DNA from: a virus
Direction: 5' to 3' (one strand)
Length of the DNA: 43,138 nt
Virus genome (UHGV): UHGV-0213559
The notes under the pieces are model-generated. The model did no database searches and was not told where the DNA came from. It worked only from the letters and a program-made list of their open reading frames with translations. Of this stretch, positions 3,651 to 15,131 are shown piece by piece. The translations under genes were made by a program, and so were the position numbers. Every line of letters starts with the position of its first letter. Position 1 is the first letter of the stretch.

Positions 3651-3952
3651 TGACAATTCAGGAAATTCCGCTGACAGCGGACAACCAGCAGTTCAGCATC
3701 GTCCTGGGCGGTGTTACCTGGCGGATTAGCATCATATGGCGCGATCTGTACTGGATTATGGACCTGCAGAATGACAGAGGGGAGCCGGTAATCTCCGGTA
3801 TTCCTCTCGTCACTGGCGCTGATCTGCTGGCGCAGTACGCCTGTATGGGGCTTGGTTTTAAGCTGTTGGTGGTCTGCGATGACAACACACAGGATTATCC
3901 CACGAAAACTGACCTGGGCGGTCGCAGTCATTTACTGGTATCAACGGAGTAA
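3650..3952 (+). CDS. hypothetical tail protein
   Basis: 100-aa ORF whose ATG overlaps the preceding stop (translational coupling) in the tail module. Confidence 0.35.
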   Translation: MTIQEIPLTADNQQFSIVLGGVTWRISIIWRDLYWIMDLQNDRGEPVISGIPLVTGADLLAQYACMGLGFKLLVVCDDNTQDYPTKTDLGGRSHLLVSTE

Positions 3953-3954
3953 GC

Positions 3955-5022
3955 ATGTCACAGAACTGGATGAGACATTTCGAGCTGCAGCTTGTGGACG
4001 GGAACGGTCAGGGAATTGAGCTAAGTGATTTCAAAGTCACCTTTACGATCGACTGGTTCAACATCAGCAGCGCGTCCCGGGTAGGGACTATCAAAATTTA
4101 TAACCTCTCGGCAGATACTGTGAACCGAATTACCGGGCAGGAGTTTTCGAAAGTGCGTCTGATTGCGGGTTACGACGGTATCGCGCCGGAGGTGTCGGCA
4201 AGCGACGTCGGGACAGTGCGGGAAGTTGACGCGGCGGACGTGGGCCAGAGTGATGGTCGCAACTACGGACTGATTTTCAGCGGTGAAATTCGCTACTCGG
4301 TCACAGGAAAAGACAGTCCGGTTGATTCCTACGTCCTGATTCAGGCAGCAGATACTGATCTGGCTTTTGCCACCAGTATAACCTCACAGACGCTGGCTGC
4401 CGGTTACACGGTCGCTGATGTGAACCGTGCGCTGATGAAAGACTTCGAAGCCAAAGGTGCGACCGAAGGCCTGACGCCTGAAATGCCTGCTACTGTATTC
4501 CCCCGGGGGCGGGTGCTCTTTGGCATGACGCGGCATCTAATGGATAACGTAGCCGGGCAATGTGGCGCAACATGGCAATTCGTGGACGGTCAGCGCCAGA
4601 TGGTGGCGACTAATGAATATGTTCACGAAGCGATTGTGCTCAACAGTGCTACCGGGCTTATTGGCATGCCGCAGCAGACCATCGGCAACGGCGTAAACGT
4701 CCGCGCGCTTATTAATCCGAACATCCGGGTTAACGGGCTCATTCAGCTGGATCAGGCTTCCGTCTATCGTACCGCGTTGTCGAACAACGATATTGCGATG
4801 GCTGGTGGTCAGATCACCGACCAGAACACGGACGGAAATATCACGCTCAGCGGCACCACATCGCAGCCTGCCAGCATCGCAACGGATGGCGTTTATATTG
4901 TGCGCGGGATTATGTACACTGGTGACACAAGGGGCCAGGCGTGGTACATGGACATGATGTGCGAAGCGCGTGGCGCGGCGGATTTACTTTCGTCCTCAGC
5001 GCAGCAAAGGTTTTATTCATGA
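3955..5022 (+). CDS. baseplate hub-like tail protein (Mu gp44 / P2 gpD-like position)
   Basis: 355-aa ORF in the hub position of the tail gene order; assignment by synteny and size only. Confidence 0.45.
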   Translation: MSQNWMRHFELQLVDGNGQGIELSDFKVTFTIDWFNISSASRVGTIKIYNLSADTVNRITGQEFSKVRLIAGYDGIAPEVSASDVGTVREVDAADVGQSDGRNYGLIFSGEIRYSVTGKDSPVDSYVLIQAADTDLAFATSITSQTLAAGYTVADVNRALMKDFEAKGATEGLTPEMPATVFPRGRVLFGMTRHLMDNVAGQCGATWQFVDGQRQMVATNEYVHEAIVLNSATGLIGMPQQTIGNGVNVRALINPNIRVNGLIQLDQASVYRTALSNNDIAMAGGQITDQNTDGNITLSGTTSQPASIATDGVYIVRGIMYTGDTRGQAWYMDMMCEARGAADLLSSSAQQRFYS

Positions 5023-5366
5023 AGCGTATGAAGTTAGTTCTGACAATTTCGTTACTGTTTTCCTGCTCATCGGCTTTCGCTGATTTGCAATGCGGGGGAT
5101 ACCGACTTCATGCATCTGATAACGGGTGGACGAAAATCAACGGCGAACAGGTAACATCTCAGAAAATTAAGTTTCTTGGTCAGAAAGATGACTGGGACAA
5201 CGTTAAAACCGACATGGGCCTGATGCCTTCCCGCGATGGCAACAATTACGGCTTTGAGTTTGTGAAGCGTAACGGAAAAGCTTTTCTGAACGTCCAGCTT
5301 CTGCAGAACAGCATGGATGCGCCTAGAATCATCGGATCATTCCCTTGTAAAAAGGCGTTACGCTAA
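5019..5366 (+). CDS. secreted or lipoprotein cargo protein (signal peptide)
   Basis: in-frame ATG at 5019 overlapping the upstream stop (ATGA); N-terminus MKRMKLVLTISLLFSCSSAFA is a typical signal peptide with a possible lipobox Cys; AT-rich by eye. Confidence 0.5.
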   Translation: MKRMKLVLTISLLFSCSSAFADLQCGGYRLHASDNGWTKINGEQVTSQKIKFLGQKDDWDNVKTDMGLMPSRDGNNYGFEFVKRNGKAFLNVQLLQNSMDAPRIIGSFPCKKALR

Positions 5367-5461
5367 AGTTTGATGTCAATCTTCCGAGATGAGCGCTTTA
5401 AGGTTGACGAGATATTGTTCAAAGTTCACAATCACAATCCCTTTAGTAAGAGAAATAATCC

Positions 5462-6235
5462 ATGGCGGCAGGCATCCCACTAGAAAAAGCGCAAAAATAT
5501 GTTGAACAATTCAATGCGCTTCTATTGGATAGGGAAAGATTAGATCCCTTCACTGAAAAGAAAATTCGAGAGGAACTTTCTGTTTCTCCAACGCCTGCTA
5601 CCAACATTGCACTATCTTATCTGGATGCAATAACCGGAAAGATTGAAAGCGCGTTACGTTATCTCAGGATAAGCCTGGAAGTAAACGATGTAACGTTGGC
5701 AATGCACTATCATCACATTTTAATTAATACATTTAGCTATAATGAACTCAAGGATGTCTATGTCCCGCTGGCAAAGAAGTATCGGACAAAACTTTTTAGT
5801 CACAACGCATACAGTTGGGCGTACCGTTGCGGTGAGCGTGAACAGTTAGAATTTTATATGGAAGAGCACATTAAGCTTCTTTCTGAATCAGAAGGCAGGA
5901 GTAATGCTATGAAGCACAAAGAAGAACTCCTTGCAGAAATGGATAATTTCTATAGCGCCACACAGTGCTCGAAGGAACAGTTTCAGACCTTAGCATCCAT
6001 AATCTGGGGCTTGCTAAGTGAATACAAGGCTACGACAGGTTTCGTTCAGCTTAGTGGAAGCGGTTGCTATGTTGTTGATATTAAAAATCTTGAGCCTAAA
6101 ACTATTGCCAAAATGAATTTCGATTTGGCTGATAGAGTCTGTGCTGAATCTAAACTGGATGATTGTTCCCTGTTAGCTAGATTTACCTCTCCGCGTCAGT
6201 TGCATACGGGGGTGAGCTACCATGTCGGTAACTAG
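5462..6235 (+). CDS. hypothetical protein, cargo gene A (257 aa)
   Basis: ORF-track ORF; AT-richer than flanking tail genes by eye; 3' end overlaps the next ORF by 14 nt. Confidence 0.5.
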   Translation: MAAGIPLEKAQKYVEQFNALLLDRERLDPFTEKKIREELSVSPTPATNIALSYLDAITGKIESALRYLRISLEVNDVTLAMHYHHILINTFSYNELKDVYVPLAKKYRTKLFSHNAYSWAYRCGEREQLEFYMEEHIKLLSESEGRSNAMKHKEELLAEMDNFYSATQCSKEQFQTLASIIWGLLSEYKATTGFVQLSGSGCYVVDIKNLEPKTIAKMNFDLADRVCAESKLDDCSLLARFTSPRQLHTGVSYHVGN

Positions 6236-6617
6236 CAATCAGATTCTCGATACCGCTCGATTATGTCTGTCTGAAAATATTGAGAGTGGATTTCGAAGCG
6301 CTATCTCAAGGGCGTATTACAGTATGTTACATGAGTCTATTAGCTCACTTACTGCCATACCGCATTTTACCCATGAGCATCACAAAAATACTGTGGGTTA
6401 TATGTCAACGCCATCAGAGTGCAAATCAGAGCCATACCCGACAAATACACTGAAATCCCTGGCTTTCGTACTTCGCCAGTGGCGGGATGCTAGAAACGAA
6501 GCTGACTATGATCTGACGAATGTGACTGTTTCGAAAGAGATGGGACAGGATGCAATCGAGGCTGCTGAACTCTATTTTGAGCGCTGGGAACAGCTAAAGT
6601 CTGCTAGGGCTTCATGA
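6222..6617 (+). CDS. hypothetical protein, cargo gene B (131 aa), possible HEPN-like motifs
   Basis: overlaps gene A (coupling); contains RAYYSMLH (R-x6-H) and RNEADY stretches reminiscent of HEPN R-x4-6-H motifs; followed by a strong intrinsic terminator. Confidence 0.45.
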   Translation: MSVTSNQILDTARLCLSENIESGFRSAISRAYYSMLHESISSLTAIPHFTHEHHKNTVGYMSTPSECKSEPYPTNTLKSLAFVLRQWRDARNEADYDLTNVTVSKEMGQDAIEAAELYFERWEQLKSARAS

Positions 6618-6634
6618 ATAAAATTAACGTTATC

Positions 6635-6659
6635 AAACCCGCTTCGGCGGGTTTTTTGC
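6635..6659 (+). terminator. rho-independent terminator
   Basis: AAACCCGC-TTCG-GCGGGTTTTTT hairpin plus T-tract immediately after the cargo pair. Confidence 0.7.
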
Positions 6660-6676
6660 TTTCTGGAGCCTACTAA

Positions 6677-7429
6677 ATGGCAGTATCTGACGAGACCCGC
6701 AGCGGCGATCTTGCCGAAACATTCAAATCTGAACGGGAAACAACAAAGAACCAGATCCGTGTCGCCCTGCCTGGCATTATTCAGTCATTCGATCCTGATG
6801 CGGTGACGGCAGTTGTGCTGCCTGCTATCCGTTCGGTTGAAAAGGATAATGACGGCAAGCGCATTACCAAAAATTACCCATTGCTGGTGGATGTGCCAGT
6901 GGTATTCCCGCGTGGCGGAGGCTGTACGTTGACTTTTCCGGTAAAAGCTGGGGATGAGTGTCTTGTCGTTTTTGCCGATCGTTGTATTGATTTCTGGTGG
7001 CAGAGCGGCGGGATACAGGAGCCGGTTGATGACAGAATGCATGATTTATCGGATGCGTTTTGTATTGTCGGTCCCCAGTCGCAGGCGAGGAAGATTAGCG
7101 GTATTAATACCAGTGCCACACAGTTGCGTAGTGACGACGGCAGCACCTATTTTGAGCTTAATCCTGATACCAGGAAAATTAAAATTGTCGCTCCGGGGGG
7201 GCTTGATGTGGTTGCCCCCCTGGCTGATTTTTCTGAGAAAGTAACCATTCATGGCCTGTTAACCTGGATGGGTGGCATGGTGGGGTCTGTTGTTTCTGGT
7301 GTGGCTTCAAAAATCACTGGTGCTGTTGAGTTCTTGGGGAGCGTGAAGGCTAACGGCAAGCCAATCGATGATACGCACACTCATGGTGGTGTTCAGCGCG
7401 GTGGAAGCAATACCGACGGAGTAAACTGA
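6677..7429 (+). CDS. baseplate spike / assembly protein (gpV / Mu gp45-like)
   Basis: 250-aa ORF after the hub in a V-W-J-I gene order; assignment by order and size. Confidence 0.5.
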   Translation: MAVSDETRSGDLAETFKSERETTKNQIRVALPGIIQSFDPDAVTAVVLPAIRSVEKDNDGKRITKNYPLLVDVPVVFPRGGGCTLTFPVKAGDECLVVFADRCIDFWWQSGGIQEPVDDRMHDLSDAFCIVGPQSQARKISGINTSATQLRSDDGSTYFELNPDTRKIKIVAPGGLDVVAPLADFSEKVTIHGLLTWMGGMVGSVVSGVASKITGAVEFLGSVKANGKPIDDTHTHGGVQRGGSNTDGVN

Positions 7430-7782
7430 TGCGATACAGACGTGAAGACGCCGATGGCGATTACACCTTTGGCAGCGGTGATGACACCTGGCTAATTAAC
7501 TCACCGGAGGCCGTGGCACAGGCGGTAAAAACGCGATTCGAATTGTGGTATGGGCAATGGTTTCTCGACACCACCGAGGGGACTCCGTGGATCCAGTCCG
7601 TACTCGGTAAGCAGAAGCCGGAAACCTACAACCTGGCGATCCGTAAGCGCATCCTCGAAACGCGGGGCGTTAAATCAATCCTCTCTTTCAATACGACGGT
7701 GGATACCACGACCCGACGTGTCAGGTTTTCCGCTGAAATCGACACTCTTTATGGAATAACGACTGTTACATCGGAGGCGTAA
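7429..7782 (+). CDS. baseplate wedge protein (gpW / gp25-like)
   Basis: 117-aa ORF coupled to the preceding gene; position and size match W-like proteins. Confidence 0.5.
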   Translation: MRYRREDADGDYTFGSGDDTWLINSPEAVAQAVKTRFELWYGQWFLDTTEGTPWIQSVLGKQKPETYNLAIRKRILETRGVKSILSFNTTVDTTTRRVRFSAEIDTLYGITTVTSEA

Positions 7783-10734: not shown

Positions 10735-11312
10735 TGGCATTCAGAATGAGTGAACAATCACGAACCATCAAAATTTATAATCTGCTGGCCGGAACTAATG
10801 AATTTATTGGTGACAGTGACGCATATATTCCACCTCATACAGGTCTACCTGCAAACAGTACCGATATTGCACCGCCAGATATTCCGGCTGGCTTCGTGGC
10901 TGTTTTCAACACTGATGAGGCATCGTGGCATCTCGTTGAAGACCATCGGGGTAAAACCGTCTATGATGTGGCTTCCGGCGACGCGTTATTTATTTCTGAA
11001 CTTGGCCCATTACCGGAAAATGTCACCTGGTTATCCCCGGAAGGGGAGTTTCAGAAGTGGAACGGTACATCCTGGGTGAAAGATGCAGAAGCAGAAAAAC
11101 TGTTTCGGAACCAGGAGGCGGAAGAAACAAAAAACAGCCTGATGCAGGTAGCTAGCGAGCATATTGCGCCACTTCAGGATGCTGTAGATTTGGATATTGC
11201 GACGGAAGAAGAGGCATCGTTACTGGCTGCATGGAAGACATATCGGGTATTGTTGAATCGTGTTGATACAACAGTAGCAGCGGATATTGAGTGGCCAGTC
11301 GCCCCACAATAA
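10734..11312 (+). CDS. tail fibre assembly protein (Tfa / gpG-like)
   Basis: 192-aa ORF with ATG overlapping the fibre stop (TAATG); composition typical of lambdoid/P2 Tfa chaperones. Confidence 0.65.
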
Positions 11313-11320
11313 AAAGAAAA

Positions 11321-11346
11321 AGCCATCGATAGAAATATCGATGGCT
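11321..11346. terminator. bidirectional intrinsic terminator hairpin
   Basis: perfect 10-bp stem AGCCATCGAT/ATCGATGGCT with 6-nt loop, A-run on one side and T-rich on the other; sits between convergent tfa (+) and acyltransferase (-) genes. Confidence 0.55.
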
Positions 11347-11355
11347 TTATGTGCT

Positions 11356-11961
11356 CTATTTATACAATACAACACCGCTCTTTTTAGTTATATATGTGCA
11401 GTTCGATGGTATATCTTTATTTATAAAAGACATTGCGCCTATTTTTACATTATCCCCGATTTTACGTGATAATCCAATGATGCAACAATTAGCTCCGATA
11501 TCAACGTTACTACCAATTTTTACTCTTGAACCAGGTATGTCACCATCTATCTGTCCAATCGTAGTATTCTGTCGTAACACCAGATTTTCACCAGCATCAA
11601 CAGCAAAATGAACAACAATTCCAGCGTGATGGGGAATTGTTAGCCCTTTTCCAATTTTTGCGCCCAGTCCAATCTCGCAACCAAATTTGTTAATTATTTT
11701 ATTGTTTAACTTTTTAGCAGCTTTCTTATGTAATTTATTACCATTAATATACATTTCGTTAGCCAGCCGCCACCAGAAAAGGAAATTCCTGTTACGCTGT
11801 TTTTTCTCTCTGAAAAGCCTCCAGATATTCATATGCTCCCGCCGTATTACTTCAGATTTCCAAAAGCTTTTTAAATCAGAAGAATTTCCAAGTAAAACAA
11901 AATGAATTGCTATTAAGTAAGATAACACGATAATCTCCTTAATTATTACTTTCGACCACAT
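11356..11961 (-). CDS. hexapeptide-repeat (left-handed beta-helix) acyltransferase, CysE/LacA-type
   Basis: 201 aa; C-terminal half shows repeated [LIV]-G-x-x-x-x hexads (IGLGAKIGKGLTIPHHAGIVVH..IGSNVDIGANCCIIG..IGDNVKIGAMSFI); N-terminal hydrophobic helix; strongly AT-rich. Confidence 0.55.
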   Translation of the reverse strand: MWSKVIIKEIIVLSYLIAIHFVLLGNSSDLKSFWKSEVIRREHMNIWRLFREKKQRNRNFLFWWRLANEMYINGNKLHKKAAKKLNNKIINKFGCEIGLGAKIGKGLTIPHHAGIVVHFAVDAGENLVLRQNTTIGQIDGDIPGSRVKIGSNVDIGANCCIIGLSRKIGDNVKIGAMSFINKDIPSNCTYITKKSGVVLYK

Positions 11962-12080
11962 TAGTCCTAAATTTAATGAAGTGTAAAATCTGGTTGTTTG
12001 TTATTTAAAAACTAAGTTCGTGATACTTTACGGATGCTGAGGAGAGCATTATACGATACTTTTCTGCACACTCATAGTAA

Positions 12081-12254
12081 AAAACACCAGAACAATGGGC
12101 GCAGGCTGGGCGATTAATTGCATCAGGAGTTCATCGCCAGAATGTGGCGATTATCTATGATGTTAGCGTAACGACTGTGTATAAGAAGTTTCCTGCAGGT
12201 GAAAATGAAAACATAGCACGTCGTATCCAAGTACGTGCCTCGGCTGTCTGGTAA
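12081..12254 (+). pseudogene. remnant of Hin/Gin/Pin-type serine DNA invertase (C-terminal HTH only)
   Basis: stop-bounded frame with no start codon encodes ...GVHRQNVAIIYDVSVTTVYKKFPAG..., resembling the Hin C-terminus (PRQQLAIIFGIGVSTLYRYFPAS); the catalytic N-terminal domain is absent. Confidence 0.5.
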
Positions 12255-12289
12255 GCTTGTAAAAATCTTGAACAGGGAGTGGAGCATTT

Positions 12290-12937
12290 CTATGAAGCTA
12301 ATTTGTTTAATTTTATTTGTAGTGACTTTACTTCTTGGTCGATAATGTTGAATCCCTTATTGACTGCATCTCTTAGCTCTGCATCAATATTTTTTATCCC
12401 TTGAGCATAATCTACCATTACATTTATTTTTGCATCATGTAATCTCTTATACATGGTTTTATCTTTGTTATTGTCTGCCATGCCAATAAGGATTTTTTCA
12501 TAATCCTCAATGAGTTTGTTGTTTCCTTTAAATGATTGTATTAATGAACGTGAATATGTGTATATATTAATTATTGAGTCTCTAGCAGAATCATTTAGTT
12601 TTGCAATGACATTCGCATTTTGCTCATAGAATGTGAAATTATCATCCCCTACAGGGAAAGTGAGAATCAACATTTGTCCCGGTTTGATATTATCAATGTG
12701 TGTTTTCATCCTTTTATTATATAAATTGATTAGGGTGAAAACTTCTCCCTTAACTCCTTTTAATACTGAAAGTTGTAATTCAAGGGATTCTCTTTCTGTC
12801 CCTACTTTAGACAGCTTAGCTTGTTGGGTAACTCCTTTTAGGGTAAACCATCCGCCAATAAGAGTACCAACTAGAGCTGTGAGGGAGGAGGATAACCATC
12901 CAGGAATACTATTTAAAAGATTACTAAATTCACTCAT
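12290..12937 (-). CDS. hypothetical membrane-anchored protein (215 aa)
   Basis: ORF-track ORF; one N-terminal hydrophobic helix (WLSSSLTALVGTLIGGWFTL); very AT-rich; cargo position between tail fibre genes and attP/int. Confidence 0.5.
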   Translation of the reverse strand: MSEFSNLLNSIPGWLSSSLTALVGTLIGGWFTLKGVTQQAKLSKVGTERESLELQLSVLKGVKGEVFTLINLYNKRMKTHIDNIKPGQMLILTFPVGDDNFTFYEQNANVIAKLNDSARDSIINIYTYSRSLIQSFKGNNKLIEDYEKILIGMADNNKDKTMYKRLHDAKINVMVDYAQGIKNIDAELRDAVNKGFNIIDQEVKSLQIKLNKLAS

Positions 12938-12995
12938 TATAAGTACTCGCTAATATTGAACGATATATATATCAAATTATTATAAAACTCGTCAG

Positions 12996-13274
12996 CTACT
13001 GGAGAAGGCTACCTGAACTTCGATCTATTCCTGCATCCATATAGTTGATGGTCTTCTGGAGCTCTTCGATTAGGGCAACAGCTTTTGCTCGAGAAATGCA
13101 TATTAGTTGATCCGGAAATTCTTGTAAGGGCCAGTTTGGTATACAGGCCATGTTATCAGTGAAGGATGCAGACAAGTAAACTTCATTGGTAACCAGAGAA
13201 TAGCTTACCTCAAAATTGGTGAGTTCCGGCAAACTGCTAACGTTTGACTCTTTTCTGCGCATAATATTATCCAT
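12996..13274 (-). CDS. hypothetical protein (start uncertain; ORF track extends to 13430 from a GTG)
   Basis: AT-rich ORF upstream of and co-oriented with 12290-12937; no convincing SD for any candidate start. Confidence 0.3.
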   Translation of the reverse strand: MDNIMRRKESNVSSLPELTNFEVSYSLVTNEVYLSASFTDNMACIPNWPLQEFPDQLICISRAKAVALIEELQKTINYMDAGIDRSSGSLLQ

Positions 13275-13430
13275 GACTGTGATTATGTACAGGTGATGGT
13301 CTTCAATTTCGAAGAGGGAGTCAAGGGGGAGTCTCAAATGAACCGTTATAGAAAGGGGGAGGATCTTTGTGTTGCTGAACTTATGCAAAATTTTTTTGCA
13401 CCATAAATCCAACAACACATTCAATAACAC

Positions 13431-13727
13431 ATTGCTGTATCACTATGAAAATAAGTGTGTTTTTATTTGATTTCACACATATCACAATTAATACAGCGTT
13501 TAGTAATTAGTAAAGACATTTCAATGGATTACCGTTAAATCAATTTAAAATCAGTAAGTTGTATCGAGTTTGTATGCTTTACTGTCATTAACTTACTGTA
13601 TGTTGATCCAGTGTATTTAACCTTGATAAACTCAGTCCAGCAACACAAAACCGCAACACATTGCATTTTGTCCCGTAAAAAAGACTTGTATGTGTGAGCT
13701 TGTTTTCTGCGCCTACGCAGATAAGGA
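13431..13727. other. candidate attP region upstream of int
   Basis: AT-rich non-coding stretch immediately 5' of the integrase; inverted 9-mers CAGTAAGTT (13552-13560) and AACTTACTG (13590-13598), each followed by GTAT. Confidence 0.3.
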
Positions 13728-13733
13728 TTGAGA

Positions 13734-15131
13734 ATGCCGCGCACTGTAACACATAATCCGGATAGCCCCAATAATGACGATGTTTTAGCCGCATCCGAAA
13801 AATGGGACGCCTGTAAACCCCCCTATACCAGCGCACACATGAAAATCTGTGTTGCTGCCGCCAAAATCATCCTCGCTGCTTCCGGCGTGGCTCGCCGTTC
13901 CAAATACGAAAAAGAGAACTATCTCCGTATCGATTTCAGCAAAGCCGGTAAGGTTACATTTTACGCCGAGTTTCCAAAAAAGATGGGCCTCAAAGGTAAA
14001 AAGCTCGGCGAGTGGCCGGAGCTCGCTATCCAGCTGGCGCGCGAAAAAGCGCTAGGTATGGCTGACGGTGGCCTGCGGGCAGAGTCCGTACATGCAGCGC
14101 TGGAAATGTACCGGGATGACCTCAAAGCCAAAGTCGCCCGGCAGAAGCTGAGCCCGGACAGTTTCACAACCTACGGGGTGCGTATCGACCGGATTAAAGC
14201 AACGTTCGGCGAGCGCGAGGTGTTCAGCGACGTAACATACAATCGGCTGGTGGAAGTGCTGGACGAGTGGATCGCCACTCGCTCGAACAATAACGCCCTG
14301 GAGTTGTTTGCCGAGCTCCGTCGGTTCTGGAAGTTCTGTGCACCTACTCTTTGCAACGGCCGCAATGTTGCCGCCAGTCTGCCAGATGATTATGTTTCCT
14401 CCCGCGTACAGAAACCTACCCCCACACGGCTTTTTACCGATATTGAATCAATCGCCCGACTCTGGCTCAATGTTGCTGCCTGCACCTCTGTACACCAGAA
14501 GAATGCTGTTCGCTTCATGATCATCACTGGCGTTCGTCCGATTAATGTCCATAACCTGCGCTGGGACTACGTTCACGAGGAGGCTGGTGAAATTGTTTAT
14601 CCGGAAGGGGTTATCGGCATGCGAGGGGCTATGAAAACACAAAAGGCTTTCCGCCTGCCGATAACACCTGAGATCCGGCGGATTATCGACGAGCAGAAAG
14701 CCTGGCGTGATTCAGTTCCTGAGTGCAACAGGGATTATGTATTTTTGCAGCCACGTGATCCAATGCAGCCATTTTCAAAACGATCACTGGATAAGCTGGT
14801 GAAAACATACAGCCCGGACGGGGCTGTAAAAGGAATAAAACATGATGGGACTGTTAAAGGGAAAGACGGTGCATTTAATACGATGTGCCGTAAATTCCTT
14901 AAGAGCAATGTTATTGCCTTGATGAAGGAAAGAGGCTATTCCCGATCAGACCGAAGGGAAATCAGCCTCCTTTGCCTTCACCACTCCAGCAAGTCAGATG
15001 ACCCGATGGCAGAACATTACGACTTTTCTGATGAGATTTTGCAGGAAGAGATTGCGTTAAAGCGCGAAGCTTTCGAGGCTCACGAGCGGAGCATACTTGC
15101 GCAGGTTGCATTGCTACGGCGGCGAGGTTAA
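13734..15131 (+). CDS. int: tyrosine integrase (P4-like family)
   Basis: 465 aa from ATG 13734 with AAGGA SD (ORF track starts at TTG 13728); length, composition and position next to an AlpA-like gene fit a phage integrase. Confidence 0.75.
   Translation: MPRTVTHNPDSPNNDDVLAASEKWDACKPPYTSAHMKICVAAAKIILAASGVARRSKYEKENYLRIDFSKAGKVTFYAEFPKKMGLKGKKLGEWPELAIQLAREKALGMADGGLRAESVHAALEMYRDDLKAKVARQKLSPDSFTTYGVRIDRIKATFGEREVFSDVTYNRLVEVLDEWIATRSNNNALELFAELRRFWKFCAPTLCNGRNVAASLPDDYVSSRVQKPTPTRLFTDIESIARLWLNVAACTSVHQKNAVRFMIITGVRPINVHNLRWDYVHEEAGEIVYPEGVIGMRGAMKTQKAFRLPITPEIRRIIDEQKAWRDSVPECNRDYVFLQPRDPMQPFSKRSLDKLVKTYSPDGAVKGIKHDGTVKGKDGAFNTMCRKFLKSNVIALMKERGYSRSDRREISLLCLHHSSKSDDPMAEHYDFSDEILQEEIALKREAFEAHERSILAQVALLRRRG

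Follow-up and report, generated by a model that had tools for sequence, protein, structure and literature searches.

A phage-borne gene pair predicted to encode a non-canonical HEPN protein and a TPR partner, carried as a cassette between baseplate genes of a SEN34-like Escherichia coli prophage

In the type VII HepT/MntA systems of Shewanella, Aphanizomenon and Legionella, a small HEPN protein of the DUF86 type, carrying the motif RX4HXY, acts as an RNase toxin and is neutralised by a nucleotidyltransferase (MNT) enzyme with the motif GSX10DXD, which AMPylates the motif tyrosine (PMC7641770, PMC11586414). A different HEPN branch is represented by AF0298 (UPF0332, HEPN-T; PF05168 clan; PDB entries 2hsb and 9xbd/9xbc), whose members stand alone, occur as fusions with MNT or cluster with restriction-modification operons, and keep the arginine but lack the histidine of the Rx4-6H motif; a second conserved histidine, upstream, may provide this family with an alternative active site (Anantharaman et al. 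2013, PMC3710099). A third precedent is HepS of the Gifsy-1 prophage, a solo, constitutively expressed HEPN abortive-infection tRNase with a canonical R100-x4-H105 motif, which has no partner, itself senses the tail-tip protein J and defends the lysogen (PMC13043305). Here, we describe two overlapping genes, A (257 aa) and B (131 aa), located in a 43,138-nucleotide stretch of viral DNA (UHGV virus genome UHGV-0213559, hereafter the window) that represents an E. coli prophage of the type of Salmonella phage SEN34 (Brunovirus) and is 100% identical to strain TB06051. Judged from homology, predicted structure and genomic context, the most fitting description of the pair is a module of the HEPN toxin type that has a new, non-MNT partner and travels as a phage moron. 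Both genes are real, as demonstrated by their families of homologues, with 215 homologous clusters for B and at least 40 for A, low ratios of nonsynonymous to synonymous substitution (dN/dS of 0.02–0.09 for A and B against close alleles) and confident AlphaFold2 models.

Profile comparisons connect B (215 clusters of homologues; phrog_5176) to solved HEPN structures. The B-family profile (A1) matched 9xbd_A with an expectation value (E) of 2.4e-6 and AF0298 (2hsb, UPF0332) with 1.8e-3, and a broader family profile (A4) strengthened these matches to 1.3e-12 and 5.1e-8; 9xbd_A and 9xbc_A, both matched by B-family profiles, are PDB entries named 'HEPN domain-containing protein'. Three features recur in alignments of B, 9xbd and AF0298: S-R-A-Y-Y-x-M on helix 2, R-x3-D-Y, and a histidine where helix 3 starts. 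Six more distant homologues of B have precomputed PF05168 matches, some homologues bear the names 'HEPN domain-containing' or UPF0332, and a Foldseek search of the PDB with the AlphaFold2 model of B (mean confidence, pLDDT, 91.1) returned HEPN domains at the top of the ranking (sacsin, ST0689, a HEPN-MNT complex, 4nqf and 2q00), the human sacsin domain being the best match. The faint HEPN resemblance proposed in the initial annotation is thus upheld at the level of the family, and B is, on this evidence, assigned as a non-canonical HEPN protein of the AF0298/UPF0332 (HEPN-T) branch. It resembles that branch in length (~125–131 aa), in motifs (S-R/T-A-Y-Y-A-M on helix 2, the helix-3 histidine, and R-x3-D-Y without histidine) and probably in fold class, and differs from it in being phage-borne and in having a 257-aa TPR protein as its partner.

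Across 24 sequences of the B family, down to 24% identity, 11 residues were invariant, most of them polar: E21, R25, S29-R30-A31-Y32-Y33, H54, R91, D95 and Y96. R91 aligns with the arginine of the AF0298 'REESDY' stretch and H54 with the histidine of both 9xbd and AF0298, whilst in the motif R91-N-E-A-D95-Y96 the tyrosine (x4+1) and the aspartate (x3+1) are both invariant. Two stretches of B had initially been singled out as loosely resembling HEPN R-x4-6-H motifs; of these, RNEADY does lie at the canonical Rx4-6H position, though with Tyr96 where the histidine would be, and RAYYSMLH, read as R-x6-H, proved instead to be the family signature (SRAYYxM) on helix 2 rather than a catalytic motif. 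Because the canonical histidine is absent, catalysis by B would have to rest on the proposed alternative site. The retention of 11 residues at 25–30% overall identity has the appearance of an active-site pattern, one that fits the alternative site of AF0298, and we consider B likely to be an RNA-cutting toxin. HepS, as an abortive-infection tRNase of the HEPN type that a prophage encodes, provides the functional precedent and a working model: B, like HepS, is a small HEPN protein that forms part of the cargo of a prophage, although the two have no detectable sequence relation, HepS being absent from the matches of the broad B profile.

B could instead be an inactive HEPN protein that binds RNA or nucleotides, with A as its adaptor, the two modulating host or prophage physiology such as lysogeny or gene expression and neither being toxic. 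Motif-less HEPN domains can indeed be non-catalytic binders (PMC3710099), the sacsin domain that heads the Foldseek matches of B is of this non-catalytic kind, and the motif histidine is missing from B. Such a regulatory or RNA-binding role is nonetheless unlikely in our estimation, given that glutamate, arginine, histidine, aspartate and tyrosine are all among the residues fixed at 25–30% identity, in the manner of an active site, and that a strict partner upstream is a usual feature of toxin control.

The partner, A, belongs to a family of 121 representative clusters with a single architecture, nearly all members being 245–270 aa long, as recovered when 1.84 billion representative proteins were searched exhaustively with HMMER; among the 185,579 species genomes scanned, four A loci were found. 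The family corresponds to phrog_17809, and PHROGs provided only families of unknown function for A, B and the small gene upstream of them. Within the AlphaFold2 model of A (pLDDT 91.7), TPR-like helical pairs (residues 7–139) are followed by a long helical hairpin (146–187), a small alpha/beta domain (192–242) and a disordered but conserved tail (248–257). Profile A3 matched engineered and consensus TPR proteins over residues ~18–139 (E 2e-8 to 1e-7), and Pfam TPR models matched ~7 of 60 A-family members; the window A taken alone had no Pfam TPR match. Foldseek returned only weak TPR matches from the PDB (E > 0.2) and, from BFVD, two uncharacterised phage proteins of the A family itself, and the C-terminal half of A had no match in profile searches or in Foldseek against PDB and BFVD. 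No column was invariant or near-invariant among 60 diverse members, which makes a binding protein more plausible than an enzyme. A is not an MNT, the class with which the initial annotation would have had the pair compared, since it matched no nucleotidyltransferase in Pfam, NCBIfam or the PDB and has no invariant residues; nor does it correspond to any known antitoxin. Taken together, fold and conservation indicate that A is a previously undescribed, TPR-containing, non-enzymatic binding-type protein.

Among close relatives, the TPR region is the most variable part of A. Residues 1–9 (window positions 5462–5490; MAAGIP(L/Q)EK) had a pairwise identity of 0.87 among close homologues, compared with 0.43–0.47 for the next 100 residues. 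We considered whether the C-terminal domain of A occurs as a stand-alone, minimal antitoxin in non-phage relatives and dropped the idea, the candidate partners (103 aa in locus L091 and 183 aa in locus L089) matching at E 0.026 or worse; the short database matches may be fragments.

The A–B pair resembles HepT/MntA in layout, as an overlapping two-gene operon with the partner upstream and the small HEPN gene downstream, and differs from it in both components: B has R-x3-D-Y without histidine in place of RX4HXY, and A has neither a nucleotidyltransferase match nor an invariant residue. Conceptually, A recalls the TPR-sensor defence proteins (Avs/AVAST-type STAND NTPases), in the sense of a fast-evolving repeat surface that could recognise phage proteins; the likeness is conceptual only, A being a 257-aa protein without an NTPase or effector domain.

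To characterize the association of the two genes, we compared ~80 loci in all, comprising 69 IMG/VR loci found with B and further loci from genomes. An A-family gene directly preceded every phage-locus B gene for which there was upstream room, the two genes overlapping by 11, 14, 17 or 20 nt or simply abutting. The pairing persisted where B was only 25–35% identical to the window copy (loci L076, L083, L088 and L093), A being recognised there by a broader profile (E 5e-62 to 5e-19). The non-phage outgroups (L089 and L091) had upstream partners unrelated to A, of 183 aa and 103 aa respectively, and no MNT domain was found in the upstream partners examined across loci. Identity to the window copy was tightly correlated between A and B (r = 0.98), compared with 0.24 between B and hub and 0.21 between B and spike, and A was always more diverged than B. 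Prophages whose hub and spike were 97–99% identical carried A/B alleles at only 30/43% or 32/37% identity, and identity to sister prophages fell at ~4980–5020 and returned to ~95% from ~6640.

The genomic setting of the pair was equally varied. A–B was found between the tape-measure gene and gpM in lambda-like siphoviruses (L014, L015 and L051–53), after gpK (L093), before the tape-measure gene (L046 and L068), in early or replication regions (L050 and L083) and at a lysis/terminase junction (L076). These comparisons show A–B to be an obligate pair, transferred as one unit among phage modules that are unrelated. Relatives of B occurred in only 2 of 50,697 records of sequenced phages, so that carriage of the pair is essentially a feature of prophages. 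Ongoing positive selection was considered as the source of the allelic diversity and rejected on the basis of the low dN/dS, which points to old divergence combined with cassette exchange. A few loci resemble naturally occurring knock-outs: A is broken up into ORFs (open reading frames) of 47 aa and 223 aa beside an intact B in L039 (4369–5162) and L040 (5215–6008), and B is truncated to 93 aa beside an intact A in L034 (6001–6282). At L050 (7530–8027), a 165-aa ORF beside A–B contains a HEPN-like motif of canonical form (RLRNNALHGNKAGY) and may be a second, unrelated HEPN cargo gene.

A promoter-like site with at least 9 of 12 consensus matches ended 26–34 nt before the A start codon in 9 of 19 divergent alleles, in the form TTGAC[TG], a 17–18 nt spacer and a TA[GA]AAT-type element, also in unrelated contexts; the corresponding rate was 0.4% at random anchors, and 0 of 258 other ORF starts had such a site. 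An AACCCGC...GCGGGTT hairpin followed by a T-run lay 3' of B in 17 of the 19 alleles, across all genomic contexts. In the window, the hairpin at 6635–6654 was the sole terminator-like site within 3900–7500, with only sub-threshold Rfam matches, which fell on this terminator, and the GC content was 0.39–0.45 over 5400–6600 compared with 0.50–0.57 in the tail genes on both sides. Our analysis confirms most of what had been noticed at the outset: the two genes with their shared 14 nt, the strong terminator with its TTCG loop and T-run at 6635–6659, and the relative AT-richness of the pair (Table 1). The placement between baseplate hub and spike also holds as far as both labels are concerned, but a 115-aa gene (5019–5366) separates the hub from A. 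We are highly confident in this anatomy of the cassette. The combination of its own promoter-like site, genes, terminator and atypical GC is the classical moron layout, from which expression independent of the late operon may be inferred.

Hub and spike anchors matching those of the window were present in 351 of 5,426 complete E. coli genomes (~6%), of which only 27 carried the window A–B allele (98.4–100% identity). The remaining diversity of the slot is illustrated by the occupants of other strains. In the enteropathogenic E. coli (EPEC) strain O127:H6 E2348/69 (NC_011601.1; L095 1382–2534) it holds a divergent A–B pair of 256 and 131 aa with a 14-nt overlap (WP_000113597.1 and WP_001123212.1). 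Elsewhere it holds a 190-aa protein with a YafO-family toxin–antitoxin (TA) toxin (L094 1431–2421), a DUF2335 membrane protein (L086 2296–2868), a DUF4282 membrane protein (L087 2021–2260) or, in IAI1 (L096 1283–1989), an unannotated 176-aa membrane protein with a 59-aa ORF. A–B was absent from SEN34 and from many prophages with 95–99% identical hub and spike genes, which carried unrelated cargo instead. This comparison with relatives lacking the insert, in which near-identical anchors enclose other genes in place of A–B, together with the homologous loci, the identity breakpoints and the conserved cassette signals, strongly supports the initial view of the pair as inserted and non-structural. 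These patterns are best read as a moron: a mobile, self-contained cassette (~5400–6660, 1.25 kb) that occupies a cargo slot with high turnover in a SEN34-like prophage.

A slot with varied cargo between hub and spike fits the concept of prophage hotspots as variable loci between two conserved phage genes, developed for P2 and P4 by Rousset et al. (PMC9122126). As with other morons and the P2/P4 hotspots, the insertions are 1–5 kb long, turn over rapidly between conserved flanks, differ in composition and have their own promoter and terminator. Unlike the P2/P4 hotspots, this slot lies inside the baseplate block of a SEN34-like myovirus rather than beside cos or the integrase, and none of the cargo so far seen in it is a defence system validated by experiment.

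The position between hub and spike is what would be expected if A and B were accessory proteins of tail or baseplate assembly. This is scarcely credible in light of the HEPN membership of B and the terminator of the cassette, and the absence of the pair from SEN34 and from otherwise isogenic tail modules, combined with its presence in non-tail regions of other phages, effectively excludes it. Location on the same strand within the late operon would also suit a counter-defence or host-takeover module for lytic growth, transcribed with the late tail genes rather than in the lysogen, and TPR proteins are able to inhibit by binding. We regard such a role as very unlikely: a promoter-like site and a terminator belong to the cassette itself and are conserved in different settings, early regions among them, and the occurrence of B relatives in 2 of 50,697 phage records marks the pair as a prophage trait.

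Considered as a whole, the evidence makes it somewhat probable that A and B form a toxin and neutraliser pair that acts in defence or exclusion. In the mechanism we propose, the pair would be expressed in the lysogen from its own sigma-70-type promoter, and B would be an RNase-type toxin using Arg91 of the degenerate motif, the upstream His54 and the invariant Asp95-Tyr96. A would bind B and hold it inactive, filling the place of the MNT nucleotidyltransferase by binding rather than by AMPylation. Upon infection by another phage, A would be titrated, degraded or bound, possibly via its fast-evolving TPR surface, and the freed B would cut RNA and stop growth, resulting in abortive infection or superinfection exclusion. 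This full model, with A as both inhibitor of B and sensor of a phage protein, B as an AF0298-type HEPN RNase with a His54/Arg91/Asp95-Tyr96 site, and the two as a two-component abortive infection system, is tentative and may well fail in one or more of its parts. By analogy with HepS and J protein, the location in the tail module might be linked to self-avoidance.

Several observations weigh against this interpretation. Neither A, B nor the small upstream gene had a match at E ≤ 1 in PADLOC 2.0 or a usable match in Pfam and NCBIfam, B in particular lacking any Pfam match at E ≤ 1, PF05168 included. Each of the Foldseek HEPN matches of B is non-significant when taken alone (E > 0.3), and in the 24-sequence alignment Tyr96 stands in place of the canonical Rx4-6H histidine. 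The promoter is no more than a match to the consensus. Unlike most type II antitoxins, A has no DNA-binding domain (no helix-turn-helix, ribbon-helix-helix or AbrB-type match, TPR only), and the loci with a split A and an intact B (L039 and L040) sit uneasily with a strict antitoxin, unless the C-terminal 223 aa of A are sufficient.

In being adjacent, co-oriented, overlapping and always together, A and B also resemble generic type II TA pairs, and a plain addiction module would account for much of the same anatomy. Under that explanation, the pair would stabilise the prophage by post-segregational killing, or be selfish, without any sensing of phage, A being a labile antitoxin with its TPR region as a scaffold. 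An overlapping pair is equally expected, other strains carry a YafO-family TA pair in this slot, and the dN/dS values of close alleles (0.02–0.09) do not point to positive selection in progress. Simple addiction is nevertheless fairly improbable, as the pair is almost confined to phages and prophages and sits amid cargo typical of exclusion or defence, the TPR region is the most variable part of A among close relatives, and a two-domain partner of 257 aa is large for a simple antitoxin. A role of the toxin–neutraliser pair in defence or exclusion remains our preferred reading.

The gene between hub and A (5019–5366) encodes a signal peptide (MKRMKLVLTISLLFSCSSAFA) and lies directly 3' of the hub gene in all SEN34-like prophages, with or without A–B. 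It is itself highly variable (39–94% identity) and assorts independently of the A–B allele. We therefore rejected it as part of the A–B module and assign it, from this distribution, to the tail-module backbone. In lambda-like prophages (L014 4984–5838), one or two small lipoprotein or membrane ORFs precede A–B and echo the layout of the window; they are unrelated to the STY1065 family. A perfect 15-nt inverted repeat, for which ~0.002 occurrences are expected by chance, brackets the small gene, A and B (5011–5025, TTTTATTCATGAAGC; 6609–6623, GCTTCATGAATAAAA). It was considered as a recombination site and rejected, because its conservation does not extend to 12 other alleles, and it is thus probably coincidental or lineage-specific. 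At the end of the prophage, a very AT-rich block (11200–13800; GC 0.30–0.39) contains minus-strand genes annotated as a serine acetyltransferase and a hypothetical protein, together with a helix-turn-helix pseudogene, directly precedes the host genes yfhH/yfhb and probably represents further prophage cargo.

Table 1. Window positions of the A–B cassette, its signals and the flanking genes (ORF, open reading frame; SD, Shine–Dalgarno).
Feature	Position	Strand	Details	Basis
Gene A	5462..6235	+	ATG start, 257 aa	ORF call
Gene B	6222..6617	+	ATG start, 131 aa	ORF call
A/B overlap (A stop region and B start)	6222..6235	+	14 nt; layout expected for translational coupling	
SD-like GGGGGTGAG for B, within 3' end of A	6208..6216	+	5 nt upstream of B ATG	Direct sequence reading
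Promoter-like site	5404..5432	+	TTGACG, 17-nt spacer, CACAAT; -10 end 29 nt upstream of A ATG	
Intrinsic terminator closing the cassette	6635..6659	+	AAACCCGC-TTCG-GCGGGTTT then T-run; stem 6635-6654, 8 pairs	
Baseplate hub gene (left anchor)	3955..5022	+		SEN34 annotation
Small secreted/lipoprotein-like gene	5019..5366	+	115 aa; STY1065/STY2022 family, phrog_3443	
Membrane-puncturing spike gene (right anchor)	6677..7429	+	N-terminal Pfam domain PF18352	SEN34 annotation

Existing annotation represents the pair poorly. In RefSeq, as processed by the Prokaryotic Genome Annotation Pipeline, B (NZ_CM129850.1 1407903–1408298) is unannotated in TB06051 and in RIVM_C029670, and among the 27 E. coli with the window allele most sampled genomes list a single 'hypothetical protein' under the 1,156-bp A–B match. 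In the literature searched, no paper named the A–B pair, its WP accessions, its PHROG identifiers, or 9xbc/9xbd in this context, and the DefensePredictor supplements did not contain the A or B sequences, the HEPN system listed there (DS-28) being unrelated.

The cassette thus constitutes a candidate defence or TA family missed by PADLOC 2.0, Pfam and NCBIfam, and its position marks out, within the baseplate genes, a hotspot for cargo in a family of prophages that ~6% of complete E. coli genomes contain. The A–B allele of the reference EPEC strain E2348/69 offers a convenient experimental handle. If B is an active toxin, the histidine-less AF0298/UPF0332 branch of HEPN proteins would be catalytic, as predicted in 2013, and HEPN toxins would be controllable by a binding partner unrelated to MNT. 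Should the full model hold, it would give the UPF0332 branch of HEPN proteins its first assigned function, and its first partner, apart from pairing with MNT, and the allelic series found in isogenic tail modules, ranging from 99% to less than 25% identity, would amount to a library of specificities.

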